Part shown: positions 5,344-64,000 of the stretch, in pieces
Layout of the letters: each line of letters begins with the position of its first letter
Numbering within the stretch: the first letter of the stretch is position 1
Origin: Fibrobacterota bacterium
GTDB taxonomy: Bacteria > Fibrobacterota > Fibrobacteria > UBA11236
DNA: 64,000 nt
Direction of reading: 5' to 3'
Assembly (NCBI GenBank): GCA_023249635.1
Contig: JAHFCH010000011.1
Location: forward strand, 671-64,670
Made by a program: the position numbers and the translations under genes
Notes under the pieces: generated by a model
Told to the model about the DNA's origin: nothing
The model's database searches: none
What the model saw: the letters and a program-made list of their open reading frames with translations, nothing else

Positions 5344-5385
5344 AAAAGCGGCCCATCCGGAGATTCCGGACGGGCCGCTTTTTTT
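5344..5385. terminator. Bidirectional rho-independent terminator (A4 - 14-bp stem with one mismatch - T7)
   Basis: aaaaGCGGCCCATCCGGAgatTCCGGACGGGCCGCttttttt lies between the 3' end of the PEGA gene (+) and the 3' end of tRNA-Cys (-). Confidence 0.6.
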
Positions 5386-5389
5386 CAAG

Positions 5390-5464
5390 TGGAGGCGACA
5401 AGCGGATTCGAACCGCTGAATAAAGCTTTTGCAGAGCTCTCCCTTACCACTTGGGTATGTCGCC
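5390..5464 (-). tRNA. tRNA-Cys (anticodon GCA)
   Basis: Reverse complement reads GGCGACA..TTCGAATCC..TGTCGCC-T-CCA. Acceptor stem pairs 7/7; T-arm AGCGG/TTCGAAT/CCGCT; anticodon stem GAGCT/AGCTT with loop CTGCAAA (anticodon GCA); U discriminator typical of tRNA-Cys; encoded CCA. Confidence 0.75.
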
Positions 5465-8020: not shown

Positions 8021-8200
8021 TTTGTTTACGCGGCGAGCATGGAGTCGCGAAGCGGTTCCATGGCGAAGCCGCCAAGTTGGATTCAATTTGCGGCGAGCGT
8101 GGAGTTGCGAAGCAACTCCATAGCGAAGCCGCCACTGTTGCTCTTAAATGCGGCGAGCGTGGAGTTGCGAAGCAACTCCATAGCGAAGCCGCCACTGTCA
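8021..8200. repeat. 3 x 60-bp tandem direct repeats, each carrying a 9-bp perfect-stem hairpin (TGGAGTTGC-gaa-GCAACTCCA)
   Basis: Units at 8021, 8081 and 8141; copies 2 and 3 are near-identical and copy 1 is diverged; they start right after the stop of the TPR gene and end 17 nt before the TolB-like start. Confidence 0.85.
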
Positions 8201-9519: not shown

Positions 9520-10924
9520 GGGTCTGCTCCTTTTCCTGTTCGCGGCGTCCTATCTCCCGAGCGAAGGAAAAGAAGACCCCGTAGAGCTCATCCGGAGGCA
9601 TCGTTACGACGAGGCCATTTCCTCCTGGGACCAGGATCTCCAGGGCGGAAAGTTGGATGAGAAAGGCTTACGAGCCCTCAAGGGCAAGTCCTTGGCGTAT
9701 TTCCGCCTCGGCAGCTTATATGGGGTCTATTCAGGTTTCGCGAATGCGATCATGGCCGAATACTACACAGCATTGATTGAGACCGGCGCCAGCGCCATCC
9801 ATTACCTGTACCTGGGACAGATCCAGTATCAGGGCGGGAAGTTCGCGGACGCGAAGTCTTCTTTCGAGAAGGCGAAGAAGTTGGGCGGCGCAGTCCCCGG
9901 CATTCTGGAGATAAACGACGTCTTCCTCTACTTCGCGAAGAAGCGTTTGGGCGAATCGGCTGAAGTTCCGGTGAGCAAGGACAATGGCGCGCTTTGGGAG
10001 ACCCTCGATCTCAAGCCGGGTCCCGCCGACCTTGCCCAGAGCCTGACGGCACAATCCCAGCGCGGCCGCCGCTGCAGGTTGTCGGTAATGATCCGCGCTA
10101 ATGGGGCCGTGCCTGGGGACATCGAGACGATGCTGAAGGCGGTCTTGAACGATGCCCAACAGCCGGAAATGTACCTGGATCAGGGGAAGAACACCCAGAT
10201 AAACTTCTACGACCCCTTCCTGATGGAAACGCTTTCGGATACGTACTACACTCTGAGCAAATTGACGAATCTCCGCATCAAGGAAGAGGAGAAGCGCTTT
10301 CCCGACCTCGCGGCGAAGTTCAACACCGACCAGGCACTGGCGGAATCGTGCCTCCGCCTGAGTCAGTACAAAGAGGCGAGCTCGTACCTCGCCAAGGATG
10401 GCGGTGACGTCGAAGCGCAATTGGTGAAGGCCCAGGTGCTGGCGCATTCCAATAAGGTGAACGAGGCGAAAGCGTTGCTGGAGACGGTCTCGGAAAGCAC
10501 CAAAAACCCCTCGGACAGGAGGGATATCGCGGACTGTTACTATCTTTTAGGGTTTGACTTGGATAAGGGTTTGAAGCTGGCGGGCCTAGCCGTTAAGGAG
10601 AAAAACGGACCGAATTACTACCGGACCTTCGCCAACCTGCTTTTCGCGACCGGTCAGACCGAAACCGCGATGCAGCAATACGCCAAGGGTTACAAGATCG
10701 AGTATCGCAATCGTATCGATCAGATCGACCCGGAGTATATGACGGACTATGCATTCGCTATTTTCAAGACGAATAAGCTGAGGTACGAGGAGATCGTGGA
10801 AACCCTTTACCATCTCCAGAAGGAGTTCCCGGCTTGCAGGCAGATGCACTATTGCATGCAGGGGATTTCGGCGGGGTTGGCGCGGAGCTACGAATCCCAA
10901 CGGATTTTCCGAAAGGGTGGCTGA
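9500..10924 (+). CDS. TPR-like repeat protein (exported)
   Basis: AAGGTGG 12 nt before ATG 9500 (alternative ATG at 9488); signal-like N-terminus KGLLLFLFAAS; helical-repeat composition throughout; overlaps the TolB-like gene end by about 20 nt. Confidence 0.5.
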   Translation: MTFSRTKGLLLFLFAASYLPSEGKEDPVELIRRHRYDEAISSWDQDLQGGKLDEKGLRALKGKSLAYFRLGSLYGVYSGFANAIMAEYYTALIETGASAIHYLYLGQIQYQGGKFADAKSSFEKAKKLGGAVPGILEINDVFLYFAKKRLGESAEVPVSKDNGALWETLDLKPGPADLAQSLTAQSQRGRRCRLSVMIRANGAVPGDIETMLKAVLNDAQQPEMYLDQGKNTQINFYDPFLMETLSDTYYTLSKLTNLRIKEEEKRFPDLAAKFNTDQALAESCLRLSQYKEASSYLAKDGGDVEAQLVKAQVLAHSNKVNEAKALLETVSESTKNPSDRRDIADCYYLLGFDLDKGLKLAGLAVKEKNGPNYYRTFANLLFATGQTETAMQQYAKGYKIEYRNRIDQIDPEYMTDYAFAIFKTNKLRYEEIVETLYHLQKEFPACRQMHYCMQGISAGLARSYESQRIFRKGG

Positions 10925-20249: not shown

Positions 20250-21437
20250 ATGACGTATTCAGAGAAACCCATGATCCTGGTGGTGGAAGATTCCCGCGTG
20301 CTCGCCAAGGTGATCGAGCAACGGCTTTCGCCCAGTTTTCGGGTGGCCATGGCGCATGACGGCGAGGATGCCCTCCGGCAATTGGCCGCCGGCGGTTACG
20401 CCGCCGTGGTTCTCGATCTCGTGCTCCCCAAGATGGACGGATTCGAAGTCCTTCGCGCCATGCGCCAGCAAGGCATTTCCATTCCGGTGATCATCGCCAC
20501 GGCAAAGCCGCGCCAGGCTGTGGAAGGCGATGCCAAGGAATTCGGGGTGGAAGCCATTCTCTCCAAGCCCCTCGATTACGGGGTGCTGACCGATATGCTG
20601 CAGCAGGCGATTTCCAAATCGTCGGCGATGACGGTGGAAGAAGCTGAAGTCAACCGGGCGACCGGCAAGAAGTATCCCTTCCGCCTGGCCAAGCGATGCT
20701 GCTACATCTGCGGATACGAGAAGGTCCAGGTATTCCTGCCTATCAAGGAAGGCTATGTTGAGGATTGGAACCGCGGCTCCTTTCCCCAATACACCAGCAA
20801 GCCCGGTTACGAGGATTGGGATCATCTCAAGACCCTCGTCATGGTCTGCCCGTATTGCTTTTTCGCATCGTCCGATCCCGCCGATTTCGCGGACAGCAAA
20901 GACGCGTCCTACCCTTACAGCGAAGAGTCCAAAAAGATCCTGGCCCGGAGTATTTCCATCCGCAAGCGGCTGGTGCCCGAAGCCCTGGATATCGACCCGC
21001 GCTTCGATCATCCCTACCGCGATCGCGATACCGTGGTGGTGTCCCTGGTGCTGGCGGAAAAATGCTGCAACGGTCTCATCCTGGCCGGCAAGCCCGGTGC
21101 GTATTGCCAGGCAGGCGTGTATACCACCCTGCAGGGCGCGCTCAATTCTTCCACTGCGGAGAAGTACTATCGCGAAGGCTTGATGAGCTTCGAGAACCAA
21201 CTGAAGCATAAGGAGAGCCCCCGGCGCGTGCTGGTACGGACTTACTTCTTCTGCATAGTCCTGAACATGCAGCTCAACCGCACCATCGTCGGCCGCGATA
21301 TCATGAAAAAGGTCGAGGAACTTTACGCCGACGCCCGCTACGAGGAAATCAGCGACGAAGAGCGGGAGTGGCTGATGCGCATCAACCTCATCTGGAAGAA
21401 CGGCTGCGGGTCGGGAGTGCCCCGGGATATCGTGTGA
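20250..21437 (+). CDS. Response regulator: CheY-like receiver fused to a double CxxC zinc-ribbon plus helical output domain (DUF2225-like from memory)
   Basis: Receiver (LVVEDS.., phospho-acceptor D in VVLDLVLPKMDG, K in ILSKP); C-terminal CCYICGYE..x35..CPYCFF plus helical region; no DNA-binding or enzymatic output recognisable. Confidence 0.6.
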   Translation: MTYSEKPMILVVEDSRVLAKVIEQRLSPSFRVAMAHDGEDALRQLAAGGYAAVVLDLVLPKMDGFEVLRAMRQQGISIPVIIATAKPRQAVEGDAKEFGVEAILSKPLDYGVLTDMLQQAISKSSAMTVEEAEVNRATGKKYPFRLAKRCCYICGYEKVQVFLPIKEGYVEDWNRGSFPQYTSKPGYEDWDHLKTLVMVCPYCFFASSDPADFADSKDASYPYSEESKKILARSISIRKRLVPEALDIDPRFDHPYRDRDTVVVSLVLAEKCCNGLILAGKPGAYCQAGVYTTLQGALNSSTAEKYYREGLMSFENQLKHKESPRRVLVRTYFFCIVLNMQLNRTIVGRDIMKKVEELYADARYEEISDEEREWLMRINLIWKNGCGSGVPRDIV

Positions 21438-22513
21438 AACCGGCCGCTGCCAAGCCGCCCTCCTTCGTCGTACATAATTCCAATTCCGAAATCGGCGGAG
21501 CCGAAGCCAGTCTGCTTGCGGCTGTGGCGGTAAACCTCGCGACCGTAGCCGATGCCCGACCGCTTTTCCTGGTACCCGCCGAAGGCGGCCTTTCCCGCGC
21601 CCTTACCGCGCGCGGCTGGGAGTTCCGCGTCCTGCCATGGCCTCGCGGCCTCGCAGCCCTGACCCAGCGGCGTTTGTGGTCGCTGCCCTTGGCTTTGCCG
21701 GGACTGTTGCCTTACCTGTGGCGCTTGCGGGGGGTTTTCCGGGATGCGGACTCCATCTGGTCCAGCGGCGTCAAAAGCCATTTCGCCTGCCTGCTGCTTT
21801 CGCCCTGGCTGCGCGGCCGGCTCCTCTTTGACGTGCGCGATTTCTTCCGCAACCGGCTCATCCGCCGCTCCCTGGCCTTCGCCTCCGCGCGCTTCGGCTG
21901 CCGTATCGCCGCCAACAGCCGGGCCGTGGCCGCGGATTATCCCGGCGCCGAGGTACGTTACCCGCAGGTTACGCTGCGACGTCCCGCCGTGGACCGCCGG
22001 GTTCCTTCTGGACGTCGCGTAATCGCCCACTTGGCCTACTTCGCCCCCTACAAGGGCCAGCATCTGTTCCTGGATTGCGCCCGGGCCCTGCTCGACGCGG
22101 GCGTGGACGCCGAATTCCTGATCATCGGGGACGTGATTTATCCCGCCGAGTCGTATGCGCGCTATCGCGAAGAGCTGTTCGCCCAGGTAGGCCGCTTGCG
22201 CCTTAACGAGCACGTGCGTTTCCTGGGGAAGCTGGATGGCCCGGAGGCGGTACAGGAGATACTGGAGCGGACCGATCTGCTGCTGCACTGCACCACCGAA
22301 CCCGAACCCTTCGGCCGCGCGGTGATGGAAGCCCTGCTATGCGGGTGCGCAGCGGTATGCCATGGGGGCAGCGGCGTGTGTGAGGTGACGGAAGCGGAGC
22401 GGGGATTCCCGGGGTGGATGGGACCGCTCGGGAAGGTGTTGGGGGAGGAGTACGTGAGGGTGCGGTTGAGTGACGATATCGTCGGGCGTCGGGCGTCGGG
22501 CGTCGGGCGTTAA
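21434..22513 (+). CDS. Glycosyltransferase family 1 (GT4-type); 3' end runs into a repeat element
   Basis: GTG start overlapping the upstream stop (GTGA); C-terminal GT1 core (EPFGRAVMEALLCGCAAVC); last ~12 codons (..VGRRASGVGR) are encoded by GTCGGGC heptads of the palindromic element. Confidence 0.6.
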   Translation: MKPAAAKPPSFVVHNSNSEIGGAEASLLAAVAVNLATVADARPLFLVPAEGGLSRALTARGWEFRVLPWPRGLAALTQRRLWSLPLALPGLLPYLWRLRGVFRDADSIWSSGVKSHFACLLLSPWLRGRLLFDVRDFFRNRLIRRSLAFASARFGCRIAANSRAVAADYPGAEVRYPQVTLRRPAVDRRVPSGRRVIAHLAYFAPYKGQHLFLDCARALLDAGVDAEFLIIGDVIYPAESYARYREELFAQVGRLRLNEHVRFLGKLDGPEAVQEILERTDLLLHCTTEPEPFGRAVMEALLCGCAAVCHGGSGVCEVTEAERGFPGWMGPLGKVLGEEYVRVRLSDDIVGRRASGVGR

Positions 22514-22599
22514 AACTGTGGATTGGTCCTTGTGCGGATTCCCGTTTTAACGCCCGACGCCTAGCCGCGCAGCGGCGTACGCCCGACGCCCGACGATAT
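22475..22599. repeat. MITE/REP-like palindromic element, GTCGGGC-heptad family, copy 1
   Basis: Perfect 20-bp terminal inverted repeats (GATATCGTCGGGCGTCGGGCG .. CGCCCGACGCCCGACGATAT); nested perfect 16-bp inverted repeat (CGTCGGGCGTTAAAAC/GTTTTAACGCCCGACG); extra small hairpin GCCGCgcaGCGGC; four tandem GTCGGGC heptads. Confidence 0.75.
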
Positions 22600-48515: not shown

Positions 48516-50669
48516 TCAGTCCTTTTTCGCCAGGTAATTGTGGTAGTAGTGCTTGTAGTACCCGTAGGAACTATAGCCCTTGGTGATGTCCACATCGTTC
48601 AGGATGCAACCGAGCATGCGGGCGTTCACGTTGCGCAACGCCTGCAGGGTACGCGAGCTTACCGCGATGCTGGTCTTGTTCGCGCGGATCACCAGCACCA
48701 CGCCGTCCAGCTTGGTGGCCAGGATGGCGGCGTCGGTAACGGCGATGACCGGGGGGGTATCGAAAAGGATGTAGCGGAAACGCTTCTTCAGCTCGTCCAG
48801 GAAGGTGTCCATCTTCTTGGAACCGAGCAGCTCGGCCGGGTTGGGCATATAGGCGCCCGCGGTCATCACCTGCAGATTGGTTCCGGGAAGGTTGCGGCAC
48901 ACCTCGTCGAGGGTATTGGTGCCCGCGAAAAGTTCGCCGAAACCGGGACCGCGATCGAGGCCGAAAAGGTGATGGTTCACGGGGCGACGCAGGTCGGTAT
49001 CGATCACCAGGGTGGGTTCCCCCTGCTGCGCGAAGGAAAGGGCCGTATTGGCCATCGTCAGCGATTTGCCTTCGCCGGGACCGCTGCTGGTGATCAGCAA
49101 TGTCTGGATGGCCTTGTCCGGGCTGGAGAAGACGATATTGGTACGCAGCGAACGGTACGATTCCGCGACTACGCTTTCCTCGTTCTGCGGCCCCATCATC
49201 AGGCCCGGGTACTTGTTGCGTATCTGCTGCTTCTTGCCCTTGGTGAAAGTACGTTTGACCTCGATATCCGATTTCTTGGGGTTGATATGGGGGATGGTGC
49301 CCAACAGCGTCAGGCCCAGCATCTTCTCCACGTCGTCCGGCGACTTGACCGTATCGTCCATGAACTCGCGCAGGATGGAAAGCCCGATGCCGAAGACCAG
49401 GCCCACCAGCAGGGAGACCGCGTAGAAGACCATATCCTTGCGGGGCACGGGCTCGGTCGGCAGTTGGGCGTCGTCCACCAGCTTCAACCCGCCGGACTTG
49501 GATTCCAGCTGGATGGTCGCGTCTTCCAGGCGTTCCGACAGGCGCTGATGGGTGGCGATATAGCGGGCCAGCAGATTGTCGATCTGGGTCAGCTCGAACT
49601 CCTCCTGGCCCAGCTTGGGATGGTTCTCGCGGTAGGTGATGATGGCGCGCTTGAAGGCGTCCAGCCGGGCGCGCTTCATGTTCATTTCCGCTTCCGAACT
49701 CGCCAATTCCTTGCGGATGGATTGCCACTGGTTCAGCAGCCCGATGTCCTGCTGGGTATCGCTGCCCTTGGTCAGCTTCACCAGTTTGGTTTCGATTATC
49801 GCCATGTCCTGGCTCAGTTTGCTGTCGGCGGTGAGGGTGATGCCCAGGCGCATCATCTTCTCCTTCTCCTTCTCCAGCACCTTCATCTGTGCCCGCAGGC
49901 TGTCGATGGACTTCTCATTGCCGCTGGCCGCGGGCTTGTTGATGGTGTTGTCCAAGGTCTTGAAGTAGCTCCGCTTGGCTTCCAGATTGGCCTTGTCCAA
50001 TTCGAATTTCACCAGCTCCTGCTGGTAGTTCTTCTCCAAGGCATCCAGGCCCGCCGCGTCGCCGATGCTCTGGAGCGAAGAGATGTCCGACTTGCGATTG
50101 CGTTCCAGCTGGATTTCGTCGCGTTTCTTGATGCAGACCTCGATCTGCTCCTTGATGGCGTCGATGGCCTTTACCGCCTCCTCGTTCTCCACCTTGCGGC
50201 AGAATACGATGAGGCTGTCGGTGGCGACCTTTACCAGCCGGTAACTGAGGTTGGCGTTGTGGGTCTTGCTCGAAATGGTGAAGAAGGATTCCACCGTACC
50301 TTCGTCCACATGCAGGTTGTCGCTGATGAATTCCTTCTGCTTCTTGGTCACGCCCGCCTTGGCCAAATCACCTGCGGTCGCCTGTACCATGCGGTCCAGG
50401 AAGGCCTGGCTCTGGAAGATGGTCTTGTAGAATCCGATGCCGCGCTGGTTGTCGTCATTCGACAACAGCACCGAGGCCGCGTTTACAGGCGCCTTGTCCA
50501 TTACCAACTGGCTGGAGGTGATGTAATAGTCGGGCAGGCGCTTGATGAACCACCAGGTGGGCCCCAGGAACGCGGCGATGGAGAACAGCAGGATATAACG
50601 GCCCTTGATGAGGAGCCGGAAGTAGTCGCCGAACTGGAGTTCGCGTTGCGGTTTGGGCGCTTCGCTCAT
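48516..50669 (-). CDS. wzc: Polysaccharide co-polymerase / BY-kinase (Wzc-like tyrosine autokinase)
   Basis: Two TMs flanking a long coiled-coil periplasmic region; cytoplasmic P-loop (SSGPGEGKS), Walker B (LVIDTDLRRP); C-terminal Tyr cluster (GYSSYGYYKHYYHNY). Confidence 0.8.
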   Translation of the reverse strand: MSEAPKPQRELQFGDYFRLLIKGRYILLFSIAAFLGPTWWFIKRLPDYYITSSQLVMDKAPVNAASVLLSNDDNQRGIGFYKTIFQSQAFLDRMVQATAGDLAKAGVTKKQKEFISDNLHVDEGTVESFFTISSKTHNANLSYRLVKVATDSLIVFCRKVENEEAVKAIDAIKEQIEVCIKKRDEIQLERNRKSDISSLQSIGDAAGLDALEKNYQQELVKFELDKANLEAKRSYFKTLDNTINKPAASGNEKSIDSLRAQMKVLEKEKEKMMRLGITLTADSKLSQDMAIIETKLVKLTKGSDTQQDIGLLNQWQSIRKELASSEAEMNMKRARLDAFKRAIITYRENHPKLGQEEFELTQIDNLLARYIATHQRLSERLEDATIQLESKSGGLKLVDDAQLPTEPVPRKDMVFYAVSLLVGLVFGIGLSILREFMDDTVKSPDDVEKMLGLTLLGTIPHINPKKSDIEVKRTFTKGKKQQIRNKYPGLMMGPQNEESVVAESYRSLRTNIVFSSPDKAIQTLLITSSGPGEGKSLTMANTALSFAQQGEPTLVIDTDLRRPVNHHLFGLDRGPGFGELFAGTNTLDEVCRNLPGTNLQVMTAGAYMPNPAELLGSKKMDTFLDELKKRFRYILFDTPPVIAVTDAAILATKLDGVVLVIRANKTSIAVSSRTLQALRNVNARMLGCILNDVDITKGYSSYGYYKHYYHNYLAKKD

Positions 50670-51613
50670 TTTTTGATCACCGAGGTAATCACGAACCAGG
50701 CCGTGAGGAACGTGACCATGTCGCGCATGATATCGAGGGTCTTGGTCCAAGTGACCACCTTGGCGTACATGATGATCATGTCGCCCTCTCCCAGCAGGGG
50801 CAGGTCTTCGGTCTTACCGTTGTCGATGAACTTCTGCATATCCAGCACGTAGTCGGCCTTTTGCCCGCCCAGCGCCGAGATGATGCGCACCTTGTGCATG
50901 TTGGCGTCCGGGGCCGGCCCGCCGGCCAGGTAGAGCATGTCGAATACGGAAGCCTGTTCGCCCACGGGGTAGAACCCGGGCTTGCTGACCGCCCCGAGGA
51001 TTTTCACGTACTTGGATTTCTTGGAGGAGAGCAGAATGATGCGATCGCCATCGTACAAGGTCGGCAACAGCGTCAGGTCGCCCGAGCTCAGGAACTTCTG
51101 CAAGTCGTAGTAGCTGGCGTTCTCGTCGCCCTGGTTCTTACGCACGATCTTGACGCGCTGCAGGTCCGCGGTCTCGAGGCTGCCGCCGGCGGCCAGCATT
51201 ACTTCCTGCAGGCTGGCCTTGGGGGGCATCATCAGTACGCCGGGTTTCTTGACCTGGCCCAGCACGTAAAGGGAAATGGGATTCTCGGTCAATACGCTCA
51301 CCAGCACCATCGGCGACTCCACCACTTTGGCGAGTTTGTAGGTGAGGATGTCTTGCAACTCGCTGGTGGTCTTGTCGACCACGGGTACGTCCTGGTAGAG
51401 CGGGTAATCGATGGTGCCGTTATCGTTCACGCGCACGATCTGGGAAAGCTCTTTGTCGTTCTTCACCACGATGTTCAAGGTCATCCCGGATTTGATCACG
51501 GTCGCGGCGCAAGGCGAACTCAAAATGAAAAGTGAAAACTGAAAAATGAAGACGGAAAGGAATGCGAATCCTGTCCCGATGGCGGTTTGCACTTTGAAAT
51601 TTTCACTTTTCAT
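50666..51613 (-). CDS. wza: Polysaccharide export outer-membrane protein (Wza-like)
   Basis: Signal peptide, Poly_export-like region (..TLNIVVKNDKELSQIVRVNDNGTIDYPL..), two SLBB-like segments; ATGA overlap with wzc. Confidence 0.75.
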   Translation of the reverse strand: MKSENFKVQTAIGTGFAFLSVFIFQFSLFILSSPCAATVIKSGMTLNIVVKNDKELSQIVRVNDNGTIDYPLYQDVPVVDKTTSELQDILTYKLAKVVESPMVLVSVLTENPISLYVLGQVKKPGVLMMPPKASLQEVMLAAGGSLETADLQRVKIVRKNQGDENASYYDLQKFLSSGDLTLLPTLYDGDRIILLSSKKSKYVKILGAVSKPGFYPVGEQASVFDMLYLAGGPAPDANMHKVRIISALGGQKADYVLDMQKFIDNGKTEDLPLLGEGDMIIMYAKVVTWTKTLDIMRDMVTFLTAWFVITSVIKK

Positions 51614-51628
51614 TTTTCACTCTAGGCT
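51518..51628. repeat. AT-rich palindromic element, GTGAAAA-heptad family, copy 1 (spans wza start codon and signal-peptide codons)
   Basis: Left arm AAAATGAAAAGTGAAAACTGAAAAATGAAGA (encodes FIFQFSLFIL on the minus strand); right arm TTTCACTTTTCATTTTTCACTC (contains the wza ATG); 17+ bp of complementarity between arms. Confidence 0.7.
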
Positions 51629-54429: not shown

Positions 54430-54593
54430 AAAACCTCTGGCTTTCAAAAAGGGACAGGTCGGCATTGGGATTATCGTATTCCTGGGGATTTGGAAGCAAC
54501 GGAGCGGGTGGGTGAACTCGGGGTAGGCCGGGAACTTACGGTTGGTTGACCCGCGGAAGCGCCAGGGGAAGGGGGGAGGCTGCCCCAGGGAAT

Positions 54594-54681
54594 GGGTTTA
54601 AGGTCTAAGGTTTAAGGTGGGGGAATTCAACGCCGTGAACATTCCCCTTAAACCTTTAACCTTAAACCTTAAACCTTCTTC
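54594..54681. repeat. Palindromic element, GGTTTAA-heptad family, copy 2
   Basis: GGTTTAAGGTCTAAGGTTTAAGGTGGGGG - 20 nt - CCCCTTAAACCTTTAACCTTAAACCTTAAACC; upstream of exbB and of the divergent gene starting 54817. Confidence 0.7.
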
Positions 54682-54816
54682 AATCCCCGGTTTTCCCCTG
54701 TTTTCCCACAAATTTCCTCCTTTTCCAGCCCCGGTTCCCTTGTGCAAACAGCCCCTTCGCGGTATATTGCTTACTTATACGGACACGGTTTCCCCAACCG
54801 GTTTAAGGAAGGATTT

Positions 54817-60945: not shown

Positions 60946-61878
60946 TTGGCCGCGATGGCCATCCCCGCCGCTTTACCCGATTTGACCGGCCAAACCCTGG
61001 GCACGGTTACCCTGCTCCAGAAGATCGGCGAAGGCAGCATGGGCGTGGTATACCGGGGTTTCCAGAACACCTTGAGCCGTCCCGTGGCGGTAAAGGTGGT
61101 CTTCCGCAACCGCCTCAACAAGCTTTTCACCTCGGAACGCTTCCGCCAAGAAGCCGAGGTGGTCGCCAACCTGTTGCATTCCAACATCGTGACCATTTTC
61201 GAATTCGGCGAGCAGCCCGACTTCATGTACTTCATCATGCAGTTGGTGGAGGGAGTCAACCTTTCGGCCTGGCTCAAGCAAAAGAAAAAGCACCCTTTGC
61301 CCCGCAAGCGCGTGCCCTCCATGGACGAATTGCTGCGGCTGGCGGAGCAGGTCCTTGAGGTACTGGCTTTCGCCCATGCCGAAGGCGTCATCCACCGGGA
61401 CATCAAGCCCGAGAACCTGCTCTGGATCGAAAAGAGCAGGAAGGTCTTGGTGGCCGATTTCGGCCTCGCGGCGGTGTACCATACCGTCTACGACGAAGAG
61501 AAGGCGTTTATCCTGGGGTCCCCGCTATACGTCTCGCCGGAGCAGGCCCGCGGGGAAACCGTGGACGGCCGGGCCGATCTCTTCTCCTTCGGCTGCGTGC
61601 TGTTGGAAATGACCCTGGGTTTCCTGCCCGTAAAGGTGGAGCGCCCGGAACGCATTTTCCAGACCCGGGCCAAGGAAAGCCCCGATATGTTCACCGGCAT
61701 GGCCCATGACCATAGCCCCGCCGTTCCCCGTCCCTGGAGCGATTTCGTGGCCAAGGCGTTGGTGGCGAAGCGGGACCAGCGGTATGCGGGAGCAGAGCAG
61801 ATGCTGACGGCACTGCGGAATATCGCGCCTGGGCTGCGGGCCGGCGACAAGGAGGATACGGGACAAGCTACGGCATAA
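60946..61878 (+). CDS. Hanks-type serine/threonine protein kinase (kinase domain only)
   Basis: IGEGSMGVVY Gly loop, VAVKVV Lys, HRDIKPENLL catalytic loop, DFGLA, SPE motif (YVSPEQ). Confidence 0.8.
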   Translation: MAAMAIPAALPDLTGQTLGTVTLLQKIGEGSMGVVYRGFQNTLSRPVAVKVVFRNRLNKLFTSERFRQEAEVVANLLHSNIVTIFEFGEQPDFMYFIMQLVEGVNLSAWLKQKKKHPLPRKRVPSMDELLRLAEQVLEVLAFAHAEGVIHRDIKPENLLWIEKSRKVLVADFGLAAVYHTVYDEEKAFILGSPLYVSPEQARGETVDGRADLFSFGCVLLEMTLGFLPVKVERPERIFQTRAKESPDMFTGMAHDHSPAVPRPWSDFVAKALVAKRDQRYAGAEQMLTALRNIAPGLRAGDKEDTGQATA

Positions 61879-61903
61879 AACGAGCCCGCGTTGGTTCGAG
61901 CGG

Positions 61904-62030
61904 CATATCGTCGGGCGTCGGGCGTACGGGGCGAAGCGCCCCTAAGCGTCGGGCGTAAATGCGAAAATGCTCCCATTTTCTTGCATTTACGCCCGACGCC
62001 GAACGCCCGACGCCAAACGATGCGCTGCTA
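61904..62030. repeat. MITE/REP-like palindromic element, GTCGGGC-heptad family, copy 2 (inverted orientation, more degenerate)
   Basis: CATATCGTCGGGCGTCGGGCG .. GGGGCGaagCGCCCC .. CGTCGGGCGTAAATGC / GCATTTACGCCCGACG .. CGCCCGACGCCAAACGATG; same terminal 20-mer as copy 1 on the left, degenerate on the right. Confidence 0.7.
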
Positions 62031-62117
62031 CCGACACCGTAGTGTCCAGTTCGCATCCAACCCTCTCGTACAATTTTTATCTTTGTCCCACCACCATCGA
62101 TCAGGGGATCCCCTCAC

Positions 62118-62639
62118 ATGACCCAAGAGGCCACCGGCGCCGGCAAAGACGATATGCTCGAAAGCATGCTCAAAGGCCTTCGCGAGGATGAAATCGGGGT
62201 GCTGGATCGGTTTACCGACTACCAGAAATCCACCGCTCCCTTTTTCGAAAAGGTCGAAGTCGCCCACGAGTTCCTGGATCTGCTCACCTTCAAGATCAAG
62301 GAGAGCAAGTCGAAGATGAACAAGGAACTGCTCGCGCAGTTCTCCCTGGCCTTCCTCCGCCAGACCGTCCGCACCTACGGCTACAATCCCAAGTTCGTCG
62401 CCACCCAGGCCAAGGCCCTCATCACCTATTACCAGAACCAGAAGAACCTGGAGAGGGCCATCGAGGTTTGCGAATTCCTGATCCTACAGGGCATCACCGA
62501 TGACGATGCCAAGGGATTCCACGTCCGTCTCGACGAGTTGTACCGCCTCAAGCGGAAGATCGAGGAAAAGGGCGGGGATATTTCGGGGATCAGCTTTCCG
62601 ACCATGGATGATGATGAGTCGGATGATTCTGAAGAGTGA
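62118..62639 (+). CDS. Hypothetical protein with acidic C-terminal tail
   Basis: CAGGGGA RBS; 173 aa; ends DDDESDDSEE; followed by a perfect 7-bp hairpin GCAGAACtaagagtGTTCTGC. Confidence 0.45.
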   Translation: MTQEATGAGKDDMLESMLKGLREDEIGVLDRFTDYQKSTAPFFEKVEVAHEFLDLLTFKIKESKSKMNKELLAQFSLAFLRQTVRTYGYNPKFVATQAKALITYYQNQKNLERAIEVCEFLILQGITDDDAKGFHVRLDELYRLKRKIEEKGGDISGISFPTMDDDESDDSEE

Positions 62640-62663
62640 GGCAGAACTAAGAGTTGTTCTGCC

Positions 62664-62790
62664 AGGGCTAAAAGTGAAAAAGGAAAAGTGAAAAATTAAA
62701 AAATCAAATTTTTGTATGTCGCTGGCGGGTTAGGGTCCGCCCTCCCGGTTTTTCACTTTCCATTTTTCACTTTGATTTTTTAGCCCCAGC
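62664..62790. repeat. AT-rich palindromic element, GTGAAAA-heptad family, copy 2
   Basis: CTAAAAGTGAAAAAGGAAAAGTGAAAAATT .. GC-rich centre (GGCGGGttagggtCCGCC) .. TTTTTCACTTTCCATTTTTCACTTTG; the right arm is 22/24 identical to the wza-overlapping copy. Confidence 0.7.
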
Positions 62791-62808
62791 GACCTACCCG
62801 CATTCAAC

Positions 62809-63561
62809 CTACCAATACTTGGTCAATACCTCGGGGCCGTTGCGGGTCATCGCAAGGGTATGCTCGAACTGCGCGGACAGCTTCCCGTCCCGCGTGAACA
62901 CGGTCCAACCATCATCGGCTACGAAGACGTCGGCGCTGCCTTCATTGATCATGGGCTCGATGGTGAAGACCATGCCTTCCGTGATTTTCTGCCCGCGGCT
63001 GCCCGAGCGGTAATGTAACACCATGGGGTCTTCGTGGAAGCCCCGTCCGATGCCGTGGCCGCAGAATTCGCGTACCACTCCATATCCGAACTCGTCGGCC
63101 AGGTCTTGGATGGCCGCGCCGATATCGCCGAAATGGTTGCCGGCATAGGCTACGGCGATGCCTTCTTCCAGGCAGCGATAGGTCACGTCCACCAGCTTTT
63201 GCACCTGGGGCGAAACCTTGCCCACGAACACCGTCTTGGAAGTGTCGCCGTGGTAGCCGGCCAGGGTGCAGGTCACGTCGATGTTGATGATGTCGCCATC
63301 CTTCAGCAACGTCTTACCCGGAATGCCGTGGCACACCACGTTGTTCACCGAGGTGCAGACGGACTTGGGGAAGCCATGGTAGTTGAGCGGGGAAGGGTAG
63401 GCGCCCTTCTTGACTGTATAATCATGGACGAACCGGTCGATATCATCCGTGGTGATGCCCGGCTTCACGATCTCTTCGGCGCGGGCCAGCACTTCAGCCG
63501 CCAGTACGCAGGCTTCCCGCATCAGCCCGATTTCTTTGTCCGTTTTGATTTTGATAGCCAT
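62809..63561 (-). CDS. map: Type I methionine aminopeptidase
   Basis: MAIKIKTDKEIGLMREA.. start (internal ATG 63561), metal ligands in conserved context (..DIINIDVT.., ..GHGIG.., ..FTIEPM..). Confidence 0.85.
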   Translation of the reverse strand: MAIKIKTDKEIGLMREACVLAAEVLARAEEIVKPGITTDDIDRFVHDYTVKKGAYPSPLNYHGFPKSVCTSVNNVVCHGIPGKTLLKDGDIINIDVTCTLAGYHGDTSKTVFVGKVSPQVQKLVDVTYRCLEEGIAVAYAGNHFGDIGAAIQDLADEFGYGVVREFCGHGIGRGFHEDPMVLHYRSGSRGQKITEGMVFTIEPMINEGSADVFVADDGWTVFTRDGKLSAQFEHTLAMTRNGPEVLTKYW

Positions 63562-63715
63562 ACAACCCCTGGGGTCTCCTGAATTTACAAAATTATACCT
63601 CTCAGCCGCCCGTTGCGCCGCCCACCCCCCATTGACCCCTCGGAGTGGGCATTCGCCGTCCCGCAAACGGTGGGGCGGGAAGTAATTTTTTGGGTCTTTG
63701 GGCCGGAGGAAAGCG

Positions 63716-63973
63716 ATGGTTATCGGAAAATCAAGTCGGGTCCGGGTTACGGTCAAGGTTCGGGCCGCCCTGGCCGCGGCTGCCCTCGCGCTTTGGGCGG
63801 GGTGCAAAACCGACTGCGGCGAAGCCGTCCGCATGGGCGATTTCGAATTTCTCCAAGGGAATTACGTGAACGCGGTCCGGCAATACGAAAAAGCCCTGAG
63901 GGCCGACGCGGCGTGCCGGATGATCGATGGGAGATTGGAAGAGGCTCGCCGCAAGGCGGCAGCGAGCCACTAA
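63716..63973 (+). CDS. Small hypothetical lipoprotein (TPR-like helix pair)
   Basis: GGAGGA RBS; lipobox LWAGC; 85 aa. Confidence 0.4.
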   Translation: MVIGKSSRVRVTVKVRAALAAAALALWAGCKTDCGEAVRMGDFEFLQGNYVNAVRQYEKALRADAACRMIDGRLEEARRKAAASH

Positions 63974-64000
63974 GCGACTAGCGGAGACCCTCGGAAGGTT

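Follow-up and report, generated by a model that had tools for sequence, protein, structure and literature searches.

In a 64,000-nt stretch of contig JAHFCH010000011.1 from a Fibrobacterota bacterium (hereafter the window), the convergent genes for an acidic-tail hypothetical protein and for methionine aminopeptidase (map) are separated by a 122-bp imperfect palindrome whose arms are tandem GTGAAAA-like heptads. This element, termed c2, can fold into a strong hairpin on either strand, belongs to a class of heptad-armed palindromes with several families, shares the arm polarity of that class and is present in the window but missing from related loci with the same gene junction. From these observations we infer its effect on transcripts and the way in which such elements spread. 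The reading that we favour, with moderate confidence, is that c2 is a heptad-periodic element of a dispersed class, similar to repetitive extragenic palindromic (REP) sequences and transposable elements of the miniature inverted-repeat type (MITEs), which provides a 3′ hairpin for both convergent mRNAs and probably acts as a transcriptional stop or mRNA stabiliser.

Inverted-repeat search placed c2 at 62665-62786, with GGGCT/AGCCC as its outermost pairing. The core arms, 25 nt each and 92% complementary, lie at 62671-62695 (AAAGTGAAAAAGGAAAAGTGAAAAA) and 62749-62773 (TTTTTCACTTTCCATTTTTCACTTT); both are composed of GTGAAAA-like tandem heptads, A-rich on the left and T-rich on the right. Tandem Repeats Finder (TRF) resolved each arm into 4.7 copies of a 7-nt period (76% match) or 2.4 copies of a 14-nt period (84% match), a heptad scan concurred, and each arm accordingly contains a 7-nt unit repeated head to tail at least three times. 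A perfect inner 12-bp pair, TAAAAAATCAAA (62697-62708) with TTTGATTTTTTA (62771-62782), interleaves with these arms, and the ends form terminal inverted repeats of the kind that MITEs possess, GGGCTAAAAGTGAAAA... pairing with ...TTTTCACTTTGATTTTTTAGCCC. The pattern GTGAAAA-N(3-12)-GTGAAAA has three matches in the window, all within c2 or within a second palindrome, c1, at the 5′ end of wza, and none in 100 dinucleotide-preserving shuffles. The predicted RNA fold of the c2 region reaches about -58 kcal/mol on each strand (z = -5.0 and -5.7 against shuffles). Shuffling and folding thus bear out a preliminary description of this DNA, which had noticed, between convergent genes, a palindrome with GTGAAAA-heptad arms. 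This palindrome is real and non-random. Also present, as described there, are the GC-rich centre with its own mini-hairpin (GGCGG...CCGCC), which differs from the loop of the wza copy, and an arm-located minus-strand ATG that opens an open reading frame (ORF) of 19 codons (MESEKPGGRTLTRQRHTKI*). The convergent spacer, 169 nt from the acidic-tail stop codon to that of map, holds one more hairpin besides c2. That separate hairpin exists as proposed after the acidic-tail gene, with a stem of 8 bp instead of the 7 bp given earlier, and probably represents the 3′ hairpin native to the spacer. Lying between two stop codons, c2 is intergenic. Arrays of CGTCGGG and GGTTTAA are present elsewhere in the window.

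These arrays belong to a wider class. TRF and inverted-repeat searches revealed six heptad-armed palindromes in the window from three heptad families (GTGAAAA, CGTCGGG and GGTTTAA), and to these belong the top 12, and 15 in all, of the 21 long inverted-repeat pairs reported for the 64 kb. Only c1 and c2 are of the GTGAAAA type, so that c2 is indeed a second copy, but the label 'orphan' once attached to it is misleading given the four palindromes of other families. In the CGTCGGG family, element A aligns end to end with the reverse complement of element B, the two having common termini (..CCCGACGATATGCC) and compensatory changes in two inner stems, namely a GC mini-hairpin (GCCGC/GCGGC versus GGGGCG/CGCCCC) and an AT-rich stem. 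The whole-length similarity expected of MITE copies is therefore seen in this family, which behaves as a set of hairpin-keeping copies of one element. The GGTTTAA elements C and D likewise share, in addition to the heptads, their termini and the way in which they are laid out internally. The ORF of the GT1 glycosyltransferase (21368-22513) reads 11 codons into element A and finds its stop codon inside the left arm (..DIVGRRASGVGR*), so A has rewritten the C terminus of GT1, or else the annotated gene end. None of the six palindromes matched an Rfam family: a search of 61500-64000 at a permissive E-value and one of the whole window at the gathering threshold returned weak chance matches and a single tRNA only.

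Homologues, going by the names that their sources give them, assign the window to uncultured Fibrobacteria. Gene order in the window is conserved among Fibrobacteria relatives, and all eight related loci that share the acidic-tail/map junction lack c2. In these loci the stop-to-stop spacer measures 20 nt (L129), 24 nt (L130), 30 nt (L131), 44 nt (L132), 23 nt (P0102 contig, 91% protein identity), 25 nt (L142) or -4 nt, an overlap (L143); in L137 it is 94 nt and contains a non-heptad, A/T-armed hairpin with a GC core. The closer relatives as judged by the acidic-tail protein (87-91% identity) have no hairpin of the c2 type. Because the orthologous junctions are without it, c2 is a recent gain, having entered, or grown within, the spacer after the split from relatives whose neighbouring protein is ~90% identical.

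Equivalent sites in other relatives carry different heptads. Hairpins of -39 to -62 kcal/mol follow directly on the stop codon of the acidic-tail gene in L141 (GTAGTTG), L147 (AGACGTT) and L149 (CAGCTGA-like), and their heptads are mutually unrelated. Between conserved flanks, the divergent exbB spacer holds GGTTTAA in the window, CGTCGGG in L123 and L125 and AGGGGTT in L127, and no heptad palindrome in L128, L129 and L131. Conversely, an element with the ends GAGAGTTCAAAGTGCAAAAGTC...GACTTTTGCAYTCTCCCC is located after wzc in L123 and L127, and a closely similar one (right end GAATTTTGCCTTCTCCCC) adjoins map in L139/L140. Most related Fibrobacteria loci that have heptad pairs contain 0.5-2.4 of them per 10 kb, other loci none, and the elements begin 0-30 nt past stop codons. 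Judged from these comparisons, heptad palindromes at gene ends turn over quickly.

As to how the elements arise, our inclination is towards a copy-and-paste spread of entire elements, given the full-length homology of A and B and the occurrence of one family at loci that differ between species. A possible alternative, although we do not expect it to hold, is growth in place: the arms of a pre-existing bidirectional terminator-like hairpin would have been lengthened by 7-nt slippage and hairpin-templated (quasipalindrome) correction, with no transposition, and GTGAAAA would have appeared in several phyla by convergence, since TGA plus an A-tract resembles the start of such a terminator. The palindrome of L137 at the same junction, GTTAAAAAATAACTGC - GGGCGGATCTCCGCCC - GCAGTTATTTTTTAAC, fits this scheme, in that its AGGGC/TTAAAAAAT/ATTTTTTA frame can be aligned to c2, both to the outer frame and to the inner one, and leaves the left heptad array as a 24-nt insertion; the match consists of short A/T-rich strings only, however, and is suggestive but could be due to chance. 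Growth in place would also suit the inner 12-bp pair of c2, which is interleaved with the heptad arms and not nested in them, the occupation of the same spacers by unrelated heptads in different species, and the GTGAAAA arrays of other phyla, which are usually single and direct, form patchworks and often lead into a canonical terminator. Heptanucleotide repeats are moreover cited as the commonest and most over-represented long simple repeats in prokaryotes, with polymerase slippage as the proposed cause (Mrazek 2007, as reported in PMC4679880). Against growth in place stand the resemblance of A to B and of C to D in their termini and internal arrangement as well as in their heptads, the fact that a family whose ends are conserved occupies different loci from species to species, and the absence of a c2-type hairpin from the closer relatives.

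Arm polarity is uniform among the compositionally skewed pairs of the class. Among the Fibrobacteria loci, 19 pairs have the purine-rich arm first, seven are balanced and none is pyrimidine-first; in other phyla, 29 pairs in 21 loci are A-rich-first and none is T-first. Since the element is palindromic, both strands read purine-first. Bidirectional intrinsic terminators, for instance the canonical one at 5344-5382, have the same polarity as the heptad pairs, and so do the paired GGGAATC arrays of Xanthomonas, whose orientation is 'always' convergent (Rehm et al. 2015, PMC4692102), which corresponds to the purine-rich-first order found here.

These properties suggest what c2 may do as a 3′ hairpin of the two genes that it separates. 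In transcripts of either strand the 5′ arm would be A-rich, the core GC-rich and the 3′ arm U-rich, and a predicted stem of ~25-38 bp (about -42 kcal/mol) would lie in the 3′ untranslated regions (UTRs) of both genes. The most likely effect would be that of REP sequences and bacterial interspersed mosaic elements (BIMEs) or of an extended bidirectional terminator, that is, to stop or pause transcription from either side, to block 3′ exonucleases, or both. An A-rich 5′ flank and a U-rich 3′ flank on both strands, placed between convergent genes, are what a bidirectional terminator has, and c2 has them.

Several results weigh against this reading. A consensus scan of both strands of 62400-63000 found no canonical terminator at c2, where the T-run begins 6 nt past the GC core and not 0-2 nt after a GC-rich stem, as in an intrinsic terminator. 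Element C lies between divergent genes, and several elements in relatives stand between co-directional, apparently co-transcribed genes; such intra-operon positions speak against termination because a strong terminator there would be harmful. Regarding the MITE-like side of the reading, the flanks of c2 show only an ambiguous CA/CA, or CCAG/CCAG if the terminal G-C is counted as flank, the empty sites of relatives being too diverged to align, and reading of the sequences at A and B revealed no target-site duplication. A Pfam scan of eight window ORFs found no transposase among these eight, beyond which no search for transposases or REP-associated tyrosine transposases (RAYTs) was made. Finally, c1 and c2 lack the whole-length similarity of MITE copies, and with arms alone in common they do not demonstrate copy-and-paste for the GTGAAAA family.

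A broader possibility, which we regard as rather unlikely, is that a hitherto unknown dedicated process operates in several phyla (Fibrobacteria, Bacteroidota, Xanthomonas and cyanobacteria) and makes hairpins at gene ends, or disperses them, by increments of 7 nt, always purine-first, c2 being a fresh product of it. That this process would repeatedly re-populate the same sites with unrelated heptads and have its products occasionally captured as coding sequence, as in the Wza signal peptide, so that the elements would be neither ordinary transposons nor slippage debris, is a part of the proposal that we view with the same scepticism.

The palindrome c1 overlaps the beginning of wza. The start codon of wza (51613, ATG) lies inside its 5′ arm, and its 3′ arm encodes the hydrophobic core FIFQFSLFIL. 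Many Wza orthologs (70-80% identity) begin with MKNEKFKVQ...FIFHFSF, the translation of both c1 arms, and some others have ordinary signal peptides instead. At the DNA level c1 occupies the same position, downstream of a conserved TATAAT, in all three ortholog loci examined (L123, L125 and L127). A strong hairpin is kept by the window, L125 and L127, where the predicted wza mRNA hairpin sequesters the AUG, whereas that of L123 is decayed. With a repeat inside an ORF and its translation kept in orthologs, c1 has the hallmarks of an in-frame palindromic element. Its shared position in the three loci, together with the matching N-terminal peptide in further orthologs, leads us to read c1 as an old insertion and as the putative source of the wza start codon and the Wza signal peptide; it is the coding role that has been kept, and the structure not necessarily so.

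c2 is not derived from wza. One suggestion had c2 as a decayed duplicate of the 5′ end of wza, which as a segmental duplicate would comprise leader and signal-peptide codons, on the strength of the near-identity of one arm and an ATG at the equivalent arm position. The arm match is correct, the right arm of c2 being identical to the wza copy at 22/24 positions when read directly and at 21/22 (95%) by BLAST. Beyond it there is no similarity: a BLAST comparison of c1 and c2 with 400 nt on either side gave a ~22-nt heptad arm at 95% as the sole match, with unrelated flanks, and the two loops aligned with a score of -19, no better than shuffled sequences (-20.8 +/- 3.5). The centres are thus unrelated, and the 19-codon ORF has no similarity to Wza. 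Nor does the 22/24 identity carry weight for common descent, because the identical 21-mer occurs in at least 120 DNA stretches, most of them in other phyla. Descent of c2 from the wza 5′ end is therefore an idea to which we attach next to no credence. The same BLAST comparison rules out a segmental duplication that includes wza-flanking sequence. The converse suggestion, that the wza copy came from a dispersed element, is right in spirit, in that both palindromes belong to the dispersed heptad-palindrome class, but the ages differ, c1 being old and c2 young.

Another proposal was that c2 gives rise to a small RNA (sRNA), or to an RNA derived from the 3′ UTR, which would pair through its U-rich arm with the region where translation of wza is initiated and thereby control capsule export as an antisense or decoy regulator. 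Considered alone, the U-rich arms of either c2 strand can pair with the AUG-containing 5′ arm of wza, at -27 and -33 kcal/mol. Both partners are engaged in hairpins of their own, however (-34 and -42 kcal/mol), and full co-folding gains only ~3 kcal/mol, so that pairing in trans between c2 RNA and the leader of wza is thermodynamically neutral once these hairpins form. A consensus scan found no promoter-like site in or near c2, which has neither the promoter and terminator of its own nor the conservation in relatives that mark a small-RNA gene, and Rfam returned no match. Relatives keep the wza hairpin and lack c2, which means that there is no conserved regulator-target pair. The proposal finds no support here, and we consider it very improbable.

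The GTGAAAA heptad itself extends far beyond Fibrobacteria. Scanning the exact 21-mer GTGAAAAAKGRAAAGTGAAAA against one genome per species yielded at least 120 DNA stretches; among the matches listed, the majority belong to Bacteroidota (Prevotella, Bacteroidaceae, Saprospiraceae, Chitinophagales and Capnocytophaga) and further ones to Acidobacteriota, Deltaproteobacteria, cyanobacteria and Bacillota. In these other phyla the 21-mer is part of longer (GTGAAAA/ATGAAAA)n arrays, which are mostly single and direct, often run into a canonical terminator hairpin (L018, L077 and L090) and have patches of other heptads beside them. Viral contigs contain (GTGAAAA)3 at 54 loci, compared with 10 and 11 for two heptads of equal base composition, and GTGAAAA is thus favoured, not unique. 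An apparent tendency of the arrays in other phyla to begin exactly at stop codons was discounted as an artefact of ORF calling, because GTGAAAA arrays hold TGA in all three frames as well as GTG/ATG, and a mechanical caller ends and starts ORFs inside them. In rumen Prevotella and Bacteroidaceae (for example L008, L023, L043, L050, L071 and L118), the arrays abut TGCAAAGGTA, which in reverse complement is TAnnTTTG, the -7 promoter box of Bacteroidetes, and often flank both sides of a conserved core, AAATTTGCTACCGC...GCGGTAGCAAATTT; arrays of unrelated heptads are frequent neighbours there.

Such conservation of unit length and sequence across many genomes, and the roughly fivefold excess of (GTGAAAA)3 over the two control heptads in viral contigs, would be expected if each 7-nt unit bound one protein, for example a single-strand binder of the cold-shock or S1 type or a nucleoid or partition-like protein, with the inverted layout joining two bound arrays. 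Cold-shock proteins do bind heptamer repeats with one protein per unit (PMC4679880). This explanation is improbable nonetheless: the same sites in relatives carry GTAGTTG, AGACGTT, CGTCGGG and GGTTTAA, so that one sequence-specific binder cannot explain the class, and the conserved feature is the complementarity of the arms, including compensatory changes, rather than their sequence. The likeness of GTGAAAA to the parS half-site GTGAAAC we take to be resemblance only, and we set it aside since arrangement and spacing are wrong.

Table 1. Positions of c2, the other heptad-armed palindromes and neighbouring features in the window, and of the exbB spacer in related loci.
Feature	Position	Strand	Setting and remarks
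c2, whole palindrome (GGGCTAAAA...TTTTTTAGCCC)	62665..62786	.	between convergent genes; inverted-repeat search, folding
c2, A-rich left arm (AGTGAAA / AAGGAAA / AGTGAAA / AATTAAA)	62670..62702	+	period 7/14; TRF, heptad scan, direct repeats
c2, centre, 53 nt	62696..62748	.	unique; GC-rich mini-hairpin GGCGGGTTAGGGTCCGCCC at ~62723-62742; folding, loop comparison
c2, T-rich right arm (TTTTTCACTTTCCATTTTTCACTTT...)	62749..62781	+	left-arm heptads reverse-complemented; minus-strand ATG at 62763 opens the 19-codon ORF
Separate perfect 8-bp hairpin (GGCAGAAC-N8-GTTCTGCC)	62640..62663	+	stems 62640-62647 / 62656-62663; starts 1 nt past the acidic-tail gene stop
Acidic-tail hypothetical gene, 173 aa	62118..62639	+	no Pfam match; conserved in Fibrobacteria; 25 nt from stop to c2
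map, methionine aminopeptidase (Peptidase_M24)	62809..63561	-	22 nt between c2 end and map stop codon
c1, GTGAAAA-family palindrome at wza 5′ end	51522..51621	-	after tonB-like gene; wza ORF 50666-51613; orthologous in L123, L125, L127
Element A, CGTCGGG	22476..22599	.	between convergent GT1 glycosyltransferase and FAD oxidoreductase genes
Element B, CGTCGGG	61899..62029	.	20 nt past kinase gene stop, upstream of acidic-tail gene
Element C, GGTTTAA	54595..54677	.	divergent spacer, exbB / 152-aa gene
Element D, GGTTTAA	35469..35544	.	between convergent polyprenyl synthetase and yceG/mltG-like genes
exbB spacer, window	54430..54816		
exbB spacer, L123	6590..7185		
exbB spacer, L125	6712..7178		
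exbB spacer, L127	6794..7217		

Three further observations concern the window and its relatives. A canonical bidirectional terminator (AAAAGCGGCCC...GGGCCGCTTTT) occupies 5344-5382, beside tRNA-Cys (5390-5464), and the organism therefore also uses ordinary terminators composed of A-tract, GC-stem and U-tract. Right after a stop codon, 8030-8198 holds a 60-nt unit, repeated 2.8 times in tandem, each copy of which contains a hairpin (TGGAGTTGCGAAGCAACTCCA); a similar motif adjoins the heptad element near map in L139 (~10666-10700), and the unit is probably a second dispersed repeat family. The acidic-tail/map junction is, in relatives, a hotspot of gene insertion (L128, 10523-11363; L135, 10523-13347; L136, 1652-4567; L139, 5490-10717), the inserts being a CHAP/PG-binding gene, a ~2.8-kb block and a 5.2-kb block of apparent accessory genes.

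Authors writing between 2007 and 2015 note that the reason for the seven-nucleotide unit, the role of the arrays and their mode of spread lack an explanation. The Fibrobacteria clade offers a tidy natural experiment, with several heptad families in one genome, the same sites filled by unrelated heptads or empty, strict polarity, compensatory changes between paralogous copies and one copy turned into a signal peptide. It makes testable whether the elements are mobile or grown in place, and whether they terminate or stabilise transcripts. In annotation, ORF starts and stops that fall inside heptad arrays, such as the wza start and the GT1 stop, need care, and near-identity of two heptad arms is no evidence of duplication.

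A literature search found nothing on GTGAAAA arrays or on repeats of Fibrobacteres, and comparison was made with better-described systems. The closest in layout are the inverted GGGAATC heptamer pairs found between genes in Xanthomonas (Rehm et al. 2015, PMC4692102). There, as here, two close tandem 7-nt arrays on opposite strands lie in an intergenic region and are capable of forming a stem-loop or cruciform; array length and presence vary between close species, with no link to insertion sequences (PMC4692102). Their defining arrangement, the same heptad on opposite strands, convergent and within one intergenic region, is that of c2. The Xanthomonas unit is, however, a single G-rich heptad that was studied as a G-quadruplex former, whereas here one genome holds several unrelated families, mostly A-rich or mixed, in a different phylum. 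Neither the Xanthomonas pairs nor the present elements have an established function.

Heptanucleotide repeats of cyanobacteria, the short tandemly repeated repetitive (STRR) sequences, were reportedly described by Mazel in 1990. TAACTGA repeats have been found in Beggiatoaceae as well as in Cyanobacteria and Bacteroidetes (MacGregor 2015, PMC4679880). Both are nearly always direct (one 'indirect' set among 170 in a Beggiatoa genome, PMC4679880), whereas c2 is a hairpin-forming inverted pair. They share with the present arrays the 7-nt unit, an intergenic position near start or stop codons, a patchy spread across phyla and neighbouring arrays of other heptads.

REP sequences and their hairpin-forming doublets (REPINs) were, we understand, treated by Bertels and Rainey in 2011. 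REP elements are known to protect mRNA 3′ ends and to act in termination. Like c2 and its class, REP, BIME and REPIN elements, which occur in many copies, are short, non-coding palindromic repeats placed after stop codons or within operons, and their inverted pairs form long hairpins with variable spacers and are present in a lineage-specific manner. The hairpin and the position after a stop codon are both seen at c2, but its arms are tandem heptad arrays where REP arms are single imperfect palindromes, and REPINs rely on a RAYT transposase and a GTAG-type head. MITEs (Correia, ERIC and RUP) have in common with the present class terminal inverted repeats, a non-coding intergenic nature, a length of 100-200 bp, presence/absence polymorphism and families with conserved ends; they differ in that no clear target-site duplication is found here, nor, among the eight ORFs scanned, a parent insertion sequence with matching ends, the internal sequence of the GTGAAAA family is poorly conserved and the inverted repeats are internally periodic. 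Like bidirectional intrinsic terminators, c2 stands between convergent genes and has, on each strand, a GC-rich core hairpin with A-rich sequence on its 5′ side and U-rich sequence on its 3′ side, but its U-run does not adjoin the GC stem, its arms are far longer than an A- or U-tract, and its class occurs also in divergent and intra-operon spacers.

For c1 the nearest parallel is provided by the Rickettsia palindromic elements (RPEs), which are said to be inserted in frame into genes (Ogata and colleagues, 2000). Both are palindromic repeats inside an ORF that are translated in a functioning protein, in the case of c1 as the N-terminal signal peptide of Wza; RPEs differ in their length of 100-150 bp, the absence of heptad periodicity and their restriction to Rickettsia. 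Together, these comparisons place c2 in a kind of element that has already been described in Xanthomonas, cyanobacteria and Bacteroidetes and never explained. Its membership of a MITE, REPIN or terminator family is not established; it would work like a gene-end hairpin of the REP/MITE type.

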